From Candidatus Wukongarchaeum yapensis (lineage in GTDB: Archaea; Asgardarchaeota; Wukongarchaeia; Wukongarchaeales; Wukongarchaeaceae), in contig JAEOSI010000010.1 in the NCBI GenBank assembly GCA_016840425.1, forward strand, positions 1 through 22,919: a stretch of DNA of 22,919 nt. The letters are read 5' to 3'. The position numbers and the translations under genes are program-made. Below the pieces are notes generated by a model. The model was given only the letters and a program-made list of their open reading frames with translations, was not told the DNA's origin and ran no database searches. Position 1 is the first letter of the stretch, and the number at the start of each line of letters is the position of its first letter. Below, in pieces: positions 3,616 to 4,605 of this stretch.

Positions 3616-4605
3616 TTAGGTTTCTGGACTGTCTGATATCCCGTTCTCAGTTATATAAAAGACACATTCACGTTCCGGTAAGATTGGACTGTCAAATATT
3701 CTAGCTATTCGAGCCGTCCCTCTAGATTTTCTTAAAAGAATACGATGGGTTGGACGATGGGCCCATGCCAATCCAAGAGCGGGTTCTTCGATTTTTCCAT
3801 AAACAACTGCATCAGGATTCATGAGAACTTGGTTTGTTACTAAAATGGCTATGTCATAGATATCTGCATATCTTTGTAGAATTTCTCCGTGACGCATTAA
3901 AAGTTGTTGACGGGCTGGAATCGCCTCTTTTCCTGTGAATTCAGCGCGAAAATGAGAAGCTATAGAGTCTATTATGAGGAGTTTTATGTTGCGCTCTTTA
4001 AAGTATCTTTTTGCTTCGGAAATAAGCAAGGTTAAATGGTTAGTGTTGTATGCTCTTGAAACAAGGATTTTTGATAAAATTTCTTTTGAGTCTAGGTTGG
4101 CCGCAAGGGCCATTTGCACTATTCTTCCAGGGAAAAATGTTCCTTCGGTATCAATAAAATAAGCACTTCCCTCCAAACCTCCTTCTTCTTGAGGTATTTG
4201 GGCGTTTATACATAATTGAAAGCAAAGCTGAGTTTTTCCCGTCCCATAAGCTCCTGCTATCTCTGTGATCGACCCCGTCCAGACTCCACCCGCAAGAATT
4301 TCGTCGAAGCTTGAAGAACCAGTGGTTATGCTCTGTATTCTTTTTTCTTCTTCTAAAAGATCAGAAGCTAGAATAGGCTTTATTTCTAAAGCATTTCTGG
4401 CTTCTCCAATTATTTTAAGAGCGGTTTTAATACCTATACCCATAACTTCTGTGAGAACTGCTGGAGATTCCGTAGCTAAAGCTTCGATGGTGACATAGCC
4501 TTCCTCGCGAGCTTTTTTAGCCATATTTTCTTCCATACTTGGAAGGTCTTCTATTGACCTTATATTTGGGTGACGTTCTCGTTTTTTAGCCAAAGTAACC
4601 ACCAA
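3616..4605 (-). CDS. radA: RadA/Rad51-family ATPase; a divergent paralog with RAD51-paralog-like motifs (would be auto-annotated radA)
   Basis: N-terminal HhH domain, Walker A GAYGTGKT, FIDTEGTF, Walker B LLIIDS, TNQV, C-terminal RIARIFDSP..PERECVFYITENGI. The true start may be the TTG at 4593 (MAKKRE). Confidence 0.9.
   Translation of the reverse strand: MVVTLAKKRERHPNIRSIEDLPSMEENMAKKAREEGYVTIEALATESPAVLTEVMGIGIKTALKIIGEARNALEIKPILASDLLEEEKRIQSITTGSSSFDEILAGGVWTGSITEIAGAYGTGKTQLCFQLCINAQIPQEEGGLEGSAYFIDTEGTFFPGRIVQMALAANLDSKEILSKILVSRAYNTNHLTLLISEAKRYFKERNIKLLIIDSIASHFRAEFTGKEAIPARQQLLMRHGEILQRYADIYDIAILVTNQVLMNPDAVVYGKIEEPALGLAWAHRPTHRILLRKSRGTARIARIFDSPILPERECVFYITENGISDSPET

Follow-up and report, generated by a model that had tools for sequence, protein, structure and literature searches.

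The 22,919-nucleotide stretch of DNA considered here (the window throughout) is contig JAEOSI010000010.1, positions 1 to 22,919 of the forward strand, from the Candidatus Wukongarchaeum yapensis assembly GCA_016840425.1, which comprises 2.16 Mb in 277 contigs and is 92% complete. On its reverse strand, at 3616..4605, lies an open reading frame (ORF) with a TTG start that encodes a 329-residue paralog of the RadA family. We find that this protein, referred to here as the PALG protein after the residues that follow its DNA-binding loop L2, belongs to a conserved single-copy clade of Asgard archaea and is not an ordinary RadA, and that by sequence comparison this clade is measurably closer to the eukaryotic RAD51 paralogs RAD51C and XRCC3 than canonical RadA is. 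Judging from the residues it has kept and lost, we consider it probable (roughly 60%) that the protein works on RadA filaments as an accessory subunit, beside the two canonical RadA proteins of its genome, rather than as the main recombinase, and the clade is possibly the nearest kin of the RAD51 helper proteins among archaea.

Homologous recombination depends on the five RAD51 paralogs as mediators, and in humans they are tumor suppressors. Their origin is usually traced, somewhat vaguely, to an ancient split between RADalpha and RADbeta, with RadB as the archaeal side, and RadA paralogs that lack the N-terminal domain occur in the Sulfolobales.

Results and Discussion

A Conserved Single-Copy Clade of Asgard Archaea

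The initial annotation of this stretch, made from the sequence alone, had pointed to two departures from RadA, both of which are present in the protein. After L2, the usual P(I/V)GG(H/N)xxAH is replaced by PALGLAWAHRPTHRILL (residues 275-291, 3733..3783, reverse strand), such that the segment reads PALGLAWAH, and in the linker KPILASDLLEEE (K-P-I-L-A-S-D-L-L-E-E-E, residues 76-87, 4345..4380, reverse strand), the Phe of the FxxA polymerization motif has become Pro. Both recur across the family: PALGxAWxH is found in 126/126 clade members, as part of a full invariant string PALG.AW.HRP..R, with GG in 0/126, and the family logo of the linker (n = 121) has P77 in 111 and A80 in all 121 of the sequences, with [IVM] at position 78 and [ST] at position 79. 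Every one of the best 120 database relatives carries PALG and P-x-[ST]-A, and, where a source name is given, they are called ‘RadA’ of Heimdallarchaeota, Hodarchaeales or the ‘Asgard group’. The public collection entry P0002 is identical to the window protein (P0001), and one clade member filed under ‘candidate division Zixibacteria bacterium’ (P0074) probably derives from a mis-binned Asgard contig.

We searched a 33-column profile of the motif against 400 Asgard genomes and obtained exactly one match in each of 80 genomes, out of the 86 that belong to nine Asgard families (31/31 in family f4, 19/22 in f21, and 11/12 in f23); coordinate matching identifies metagenome-assembled genomes (MAGs) named Hodarchaeota and B3_Heim in f21 and a Heimdallarchaeota MAG in f23. 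The other 314 Asgard genomes gave a single weak match (31 bits), with 0/135 in the largest family, and no match was found in 602 non-Asgard genomes of the Thermoproteota and Archaeoglobi phyla (301 from the phylum of a Desulfurococcales MAG and 301 from that of a Geoglobus MAG). Similarly, ALGxxW occurs in 0/102 canonical archaeal RadA sequences, all 102 of which have GG. Because the signature is present throughout the clade and absent from canonical RadA and from these other archaea, it is neither a product of chance nor a common RadA variant, and PALGxxW is thus not widespread in ordinary RadA, a possibility that the initial annotation had raised. We note that the collection has only three species genomes (G000-G002) for the class of the source genome, among them Heimdallarchaeota archaeon b1.sp2_bin.26.

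The source genome holds four Rad51-family genes, comprising the PALG gene, a RadB-like gene for a 249-residue protein without the N-domain (contig C119), and two canonical RadA genes, whose possible presence had likewise been raised by the initial annotation. The first of the latter (357 residues; contig C108, L001:1495-2568, reverse strand) has FVTA and PIGGHVVAH, the second (320 residues; contig C41, L002:529-1491, reverse strand) has FKSA and AVGGHVMAH, and both share 44.5% identity with the window protein. Canonical RadA is also co-present in 6/6 PALG-bearing genomes inspected closely. The C108 RadA bears a Ser/Glu-rich N-terminal extension of ~45 residues and clusters with Heimdall/Hod RadA, and the C41 RadA is placed elsewhere among Asgard RadA. 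More broadly, Asgard genomes encode up to six Rad51-family genes each (40 relatives, loci L005-L079), including further diverged paralog groups, one of 390-450 residues with N-terminal extensions and another with P-V-A-x-Q..LNHFF where RadA has GG; in Asgard RadB-like proteins, the post-L2 motif often ends in Y-W.

Residues Kept, Lost and Gained

The PALG protein shares its helix-hairpin-helix (HhH) N-terminal domain, RecA-type core, length and fold with canonical RadA (1PZN from P. furiosus and 2BKE from S. solfataricus) and with RAD51/DMC1, with sequence matches of 1.3e-84 and 5.4e-83. Pfam places Rad51 (1.6e-76) at residues 88-325 and HHH_5 (8.2e-9) at residues 19-70 (4396..4551, reverse strand; helices 26-72 in our model), in line with the earlier observation that the HhH domain is kept here, unlike in RadB-like proteins, which are without it. 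Our AlphaFold2 model of the window protein, built from a 66-row alignment, has a mean predicted local distance difference test (pLDDT) score of 90.8 and is uncertain solely in the L2 loop (pLDDT 60-70). Foldseek superposes this model on RAD51/RadA filament protomers with a template-modeling (TM) score of 0.89, although the comparison is non-discriminating, in that RAD51 and RadA protomers top the matches, as expected.

The functional elements are, all on the reverse strand, Walker A (GAYGTGKT, residues 118-125, 4231..4254); DTEGTF with the catalytic Glu154 (residues 152-157, 4135..4152), in which F157 is also invariant; Walker B (LLIIDS, residues 209-214, 3964..3981), followed by A216; the L1 DNA-binding region RAEFTGKEAIPARQQ (residues 220-234, 3904..3948), with R220 and E222 among its invariant residues; the L2 region NQVLMNPDAVVYGKIEE, placed by alignments (residues 258-274, 3784..3834); and the ATP-cap D-S-P (residues 305-307, 3685..3693), aligned with the DSP of RadA/RAD51. 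The invariant catalytic set comprises G118, G123, K124, D152, E154, D213, S214, R232, Q233, Q234, N258, Q259, H283, D305 and S306, and in the family (n = 121) this set is joined, at full or near invariance, by P77, A80, PALG, A280, W281, R284, P285, R288 and L291-R292-K293. Since the HhH domain, Walker A and B, the catalytic Glu, the Arg-Gln-Gln of L1, the Asn-Gln pair ahead of L2, the trans-acting His and the ATP cap are all kept, the protein should bind ATP and DNA and fit a RadA-type protomer interface.

Unlike canonical RadA/RAD51, however, it lacks the polymerization Phe, which canonical RadA has at linker column 77 in 90% of sequences, has Leu-Gly in place of the Gly-Gly hinge, and carries Trp281. 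In total, 16 alignment columns hold a residue that is present in ≥80% of canonical archaeal RadA and lost in the PALG clade, including F77, R87, E109, H129, R158, R226, N237, H241, D271, P272, G277, H279 and Y290. At residue 158, the hallmark Arg of TFRPER has become Ser or Phe, and L2 exceeds that of canonical RadA by one residue and is without the D-P of F-G-D-P, to which the lost states D271 and P272 belong. On RadA and RAD51, the PALG profile scores ~100 bits below the canonical Asgard profile.

The eukaryotic sets used for comparison were gathered through two short seed peptides (44 and 45 residues), with the analysis performed on database-returned records only, and consist of vertebrate RAD51C, 148 RAD51C representatives (at 50% identity), and XRCC3 of mammals only. 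Of the 16 lost RadA states, 14 are below 50% in RAD51C and 14 are below 50% in XRCC3. The clade has in turn 12 specific conserved states, five of which are common to RAD51C (A216, A240, A276, L277 and W281), four to XRCC3 and none to RadB, and the alternative set fixed in the clade is P77, A216, A240, A276-L277, W281 and R284. A216 occurs in 100% of the PALG clade, 75% of RAD51C, 100% of XRCC3 and ≤5% of canonical RadA, where Thr is commonest, and A276, L277 and W281 are found in 100% of RAD51C, 83% of XRCC3, ≤5% of canonical RadA (L277 in 0%) and 0-17% of RadB.

Likeness to RAD51C and XRCC3

The statement in the initial annotation that PALGxxW is typical of RAD51 paralogs is borne out for RAD51C, where the motif is present in 115/148 representatives (consensus VPALGESW[GAS]HA) and 91/120 vertebrate sequences, and for mammalian XRCC3, where it is present in 89/120 (SPALGITWAN); among the sampled RAD51C representatives that lack it, most fall short of the usual full length. 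The proposed likeness of the linker to RAD51C is equally real, with the PALG clade, RAD51C and XRCC3 having in common the Phe-less register x-[IV]-[ST]-A-[LA]-[DE]-L-L (PITAFELL in one RAD51C representative), whereas RadA has G-F-x-[ST]-A. Together with PALGxxW(x)H after L2, the Ala after Walker B and the N-terminal domain, this makes up the resemblance to RAD51C/XRCC3. The resemblance is not one of overall sequence, as identity to the PALG protein is 31-32% and the latter is much less diverged from RadA: its L2 is of RadA-like length, without the long insertions of XRCC3, and it keeps LRKxRGxxRI and DSPxLPE, which are lost in RAD51C/XRCC3.

Profile comparisons against the PDB point in the same direction. 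The PALG profile outscores the canonical Asgard RadA profile on RAD51C (181 vs 128 bits), XRCC3 (176 vs 131) and RAD51B (157 vs 124), and falls below it on human RAD51 (297 vs 391) and S. solfataricus RadA (359 vs 466). With hidden Markov models (HMMs) of the eukaryotic proteins, the PALG clade has median scores of 243.9 bits for RAD51C and 118.1 bits for XRCC3, compared to 206.3 and 93.6 bits for canonical RadA, and equally diverged Asgard paralogs reach 148-192 bits with the RAD51C model, compared to 221-257 bits for PALG-clade members. RadB scores 71.5 bits with the PALG profile and 76.6 bits with the canonical profile, such that the PALG clade is no closer to RadB. Masking of the 37.6-bit RAD51C excess assigns 17 bits to residues 274-284, ~7 bits to the linker and 7-13 bits elsewhere. 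With the 33-column profile, the PDB matches were RAD51 (E 0.02, by its C-terminal half) and residues 260-278 of RAD51D (E 0.24, by its PALG half), the latter being indirect support for the motif in RAD51D; other short-motif PDB searches were uninformative, in that a 21-column profile gave no match and a 39-residue piece matched only de novo beta-trefoil proteins (E 0.02-0.07) and RadA (E 0.7).

One part of the initial annotation did not hold up. The Walker A stretch said to parallel RAD51C is present (within residues 114-155), but for residues 77-176 the scores are 76-80 bits with RAD51C and 80-90 bits with RadA/RAD51/DMC1. We therefore attribute this stretch to family-wide conservation and reject a special likeness to RAD51C.

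Phylogeny and Ancestry

Trees were inferred from two data sets. The first has 84 rows (15 PALG, 41 canonical RadA drawn both from Asgard archaea and from other phyla, 16 RAD51C, 6 XRCC3 and 6 Asgard RadB) and 313 columns, and was analyzed under LG+C20+F+G4 with posterior mean site frequencies (PMSF) and a careful search; the second adds four RecA sequences. Rad51/DMC1, RAD51B, RAD51D, XRCC2 and Rad55/57 stand outside this sampling, and XRCC3 is represented by mammals only, with a very long branch and deviant composition. Rooted on RadB, the first data set gives ((XRCC3,RAD51C) 78/45, (PALG 89/70, canonical RadA 96/98) 94/94). Canonical RadA is monophyletic to the exclusion of the PALG protein (96/98 and 96/94), which is placed as its sister or outside it and thus does not nest inside canonical RadA, a placement that the initial annotation had considered. 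Forcing PALG together with RAD51C and XRCC3 is 10 log-likelihood units (lnL) worse, with an approximately unbiased (AU) test p-AU of 0.33, and forcing it together with Heimdall/Hod canonical RadA is 41 lnL worse (p-AU 0.050). Rooted on RecA, the second data set instead gives (PALG,(XRCC3,RAD51C) 99/100) at 72/98, with RecA and RadB basal and canonical RadA a weakly resolved grade; here, the classical arrangement is 13 lnL worse (p-AU 0.29). When the 46 columns that carry the signature (residues 72-90, 214-218, 238-242 and 270-286) are removed, leaving 265, the tree reads RecA | RadB | ((XRCC3,RAD51C) 98/80, (PALG, RadA) 100/99).

Viewed without an outgroup, the tree of RadA, PALG and RADbeta is star-shaped, and the question therefore comes down to the attachment point of the root, itself a very long branch. 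In the rooted trees, the order RadB, RADbeta, PALG, RadA tracks branch length, as expected under long-branch attraction, and the RadB-rooted and signature-free trees, taken literally, make a Heimdall-only gene older than all archaeal RadA, which is hard to believe. For these reasons, the single-gene trees leave the ancestry of the PALG clade undecided, with the AU tests rejecting neither arrangement, and the link to the RAD51 paralogs rests mainly on the signature characters. As regards the initial annotation's proposal of a prokaryotic relative of the eukaryotic mediators, the greater closeness to RAD51C/XRCC3 than canonical RadA has is upheld, whereas a specific kinship appears in the RecA-rooted tree only. 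The derived states and Phe-less linker in common with RAD51C/XRCC3 reflect either common descent or convergence after the loss of homopolymer formation.

To convergence we give about an even chance. On this account, a RadA duplicate arose within the Asgard archaea, evolved fast, and converged on the signature once it had lost the homofilament. The 265 nonsignature columns, which place PALG with RadA at 100/99, argue for it, as does similarity that is far higher to RadA/RAD51 than to any paralog (1e-84 vs 4e-31 in the PDB); the ladder of branch lengths is what long-branch attraction would give, and a clade of such narrow range that is nevertheless sister to the RadA of all archaeal phyla points to a tree artifact. 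It is less easily reconciled with the near rejection of a position among Heimdall/Hod canonical RadA (p-AU 0.050), or with the fact that no other sampled group of Asgard RadA paralogs has gained the signature or raised RAD51C scores. Convergence would, in addition, have fallen exactly in the archaeal group nearest to eukaryotes.

Common descent we hold as a tentative reading, at somewhat short of even odds. The PALG clade would then be, on the archaeal side, the sister group or the progenitor of the RAD51 paralogs that bear an N-terminal domain (RAD51B/C/D and XRCC3), and both groups would have inherited PALGxxW, A216 and the Phe-less linker as synapomorphies from a Heimdall-group ancestor. 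This agrees with the RecA-rooted maximum-likelihood tree (72/98), with the cost of just 10 lnL for the same grouping in the RadB-rooted set, with the distribution of clade-specific states (5/12 in RAD51C, 4/12 in XRCC3 and 0/12 in RadB), with the identical linker register, and with reciprocal HMM scores that exceed those of canonical RadA and every other Asgard paralog, 7-13 bits of which survive motif masking. RadB is without both the N-terminal domain and the signature, such that the paralogs with an N-terminal domain need another archaeal source, and the signature, as sampled, is confined to eukaryotic paralogs and the archaea closest to eukaryotes. Given the spread of the clade over Hodarchaeota MAGs and eight further families, and the eukaryote placement of Eme et al. 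2023, as cited in other papers, the archaeal ancestor of eukaryotes would have carried it. A 2026 preprint also describes a structural cluster confined to Asgard archaea and eukaryotes, in which RAD51D is the dominant eukaryotic member and the Asgard members are treated as pre-duplication homologs.

Against common descent stand the signature-free tree, in which RAD51C and XRCC3 fall outside PALG plus canonical RadA, the agreement of the full RadB-rooted tree with that grouping (94/94), and the small cost of the classical arrangement in the RecA set (13 lnL). Moreover, A216, A240, A276, L277 and W281 may constitute one co-adapted cluster around the Trp and hence a single event, and the trees do not include Rad51/DMC1, RAD51B, RAD51D or XRCC2. 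We thus advance only tentatively that the eukaryotic RAD51-paralog lineage began from this Heimdall-group RadA paralog, rather than from RadB or from a Rad51 duplication specific to eukaryotes.

A Candidate Accessory Subunit of RadA Filaments

The FxxA-acceptor strand reads ILVSRAYN in the PALG protein and IFVSRAFN in the genome's RadA, compared by eye and with pocket residues that we take to be those of the RAD51-BRC4 complex. If the acceptor pocket is kept and there is no Phe to donate, a PALG protomer could join one end of a RadA filament or a small hetero-complex, where it would be unable to extend the polymer in one direction. By analogy with RadB, Rad55-Rad57 or XRCC3-RAD51C, we hypothesize that it could serve as a cap, nucleator or mediator. 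That P-[IV]-[ST]-A is so strictly conserved suggests an altered contact with a partner, which the linker continues to make. In known systems, XRCC3-RAD51C-RAD51D-XRCC2 is an end-binding and capping complex on RAD51, and RadB has been modeled likewise on RadA (PMC7618403). RadB is in this sense an archaeal parallel, as an accessory Rad51-family protein alongside RadA for which a mediator or capping role has been proposed (PMC5480776; PMC7618403), although the PALG protein differs from it in having an N-terminal domain and PALGxxW, and coexists with a separate RadB-like gene. A complex prediction for canonical RadA with the PALG protein scored 0.01, which is no verdict and speaks neither for nor against binding.

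Several observations weigh against an accessory protein akin to the RAD51 helpers. The RAD51C-HMM ranges overlap, with the best canonical RadA at 233-237 bits and the PALG clade at 221-264 bits, and about half of the RAD51C excess (17/37.6 bits) resides in one 11-residue motif. The retention of all catalytic and DNA-binding residues is compatible with an independent, fully active second recombinase, the Pro plus Ile/Val of the linker might yet allow self-assembly, and there are no repair genes and no conserved repair operon beside the PALG gene in the window or at three other family loci.

The accessory subunit has to be weighed against a second, specialized and fully competent recombinase, comparable to DMC1, that polymerizes through P-[IV]-[ST]-A. 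The conserved ATPase and DNA-binding residues, the retained N-terminal domain and the strong constraint on the linker motif would all suit such a protein, as would the description by Matsuo et al. 2025 (PMC12722695) of RadA duplicated into separate clades in Heimdall, Gerd and Njord archaea. We nevertheless consider it unlikely, in light of the 16 lost RadA hallmarks, among them the polymerization Phe and the Gly-Gly hinge of L2, and of the two canonical RadA genes already present in the genome. Going by human RAD51, most of these 16 hallmarks are also kept in eukaryotic RAD51, which further counts against a second recombinase.

That the protein is simply a RadA ortholog, as publicly named, with neutral drift in its motifs, is ruled out for practical purposes, since, while it passes the NCBIfam RadA model NF003301 (364 bits, cutoff 259) and the sources call family members ‘RadA’, it fails the stricter TIGR02236 (343 bits, cutoff 361), its signature marks all 126 members and none of the 102 canonical sequences, canonical RadA is present in the same genomes, and the tree places it outside the canonical clade (96/98). 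The RadB identity was likewise rejected, on account of the N-terminal domain and of scores far under the cutoffs of TIGR02237 (99 bits, cutoff 172) and NF006861 (67 bits, cutoff 278); the window protein is also far under the cutoffs of TIGR02239 and TIGR02238.

Gene Neighborhood

In the window, the PALG gene is followed downstream by a gene for a protein with two SIS domains, of sugar isomerase or aminotransferase type (2468-3565, reverse strand), and has as its divergent neighbor a gene of the SepSecS/class-V aminotransferase family (4972-6195, forward strand), the product of which is SepCysS-like, judging from the N-terminal sequence. Beyond these lie genes for a P-type cation ATPase of 908 residues (6201-8927, reverse strand), an archaeal type IV prepilin peptidase (A24; 9772-10572, reverse strand) and a DUF711 protein (10711-12108, forward strand). 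Otherwise, the window carries housekeeping genes (NUDIX, thioredoxin, FAA hydrolase, nucleotidyltransferase, an NAD(P)H-hydrate repair enzyme, PurE and a thiamine pyrophosphate (TPP) enzyme), and four ORFs of 122-219 residues (76-444, 595-1254, 16153-16635 and 18333-18923) gave no Pfam match.

A Sua5/YciO/YrdC gene (12115-12756, reverse strand) lies 7.5 kb from the PALG gene, and genes of the same family directly adjoin the PALG-clade gene at two other loci (L165:5971-6639 and L166:3669-4316), with TsaD/Kae1 adjoining in one; this proximity may be due to chance. At a Hodarchaeales locus (L164, 1-2664 and 6909-7445), the PALG gene is 2-5 kb from a cluster of endosomal sorting complex required for transport (ESCRT) genes (two Snf7, Vps4 and ESCRT-II) and is adjoined by a PAC2 gene and a Ras-like GTPase gene, and an Arf-like GTPase gene lies near the homolog at L165.

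Relation to Earlier Work and Significance

Two recent studies bear on this family, and both found several RadA-like genes in genomes of the Heimdall group. Matsuo et al. 2025 (PMC12722695) distinguish two clades of RadA among Heimdall, Gerd and Njord archaea, and Ferlez et al. (bioRxiv 2025.02.19.639135) sort Asgard RadA into 18 groups, discarding four with atypical motifs. Both drew comparisons with Rad51/DMC1 only and removed long or atypical sequences. The PALG clade is probably included in these multiple RadA-like sequences. The PALG motif, the loss of the Phe and the RAD51 paralogs find no mention in the searched text of either study, and our literature search found no paper tying an Asgard protein to RAD51C.

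The plain naming as ‘RadA’ in public records masks a three-paralog system of two RadA and the PALG protein, with RadB in addition. The PALG clade is a conserved paralog, in the archaea closest to eukaryotes, that combines a RadA-like body with the paralog signature. It offers a slowly evolving intermediate for the phylogeny of paralog origin, and the protein itself a simple one-subunit system for the effects of PALGxxW and the Phe-less linker on filament assembly. If the resemblance is convergent, the same cluster of residues would mark the preferred path from recombinase to mediator. If the eukaryotic paralogs did begin from a Heimdall-group RadA paralog, the split between the recombinase and a mediator with an N-terminal domain, PALGxxW and a Phe-less linker would predate eukaryotes and would already have been present in their archaeal ancestor.

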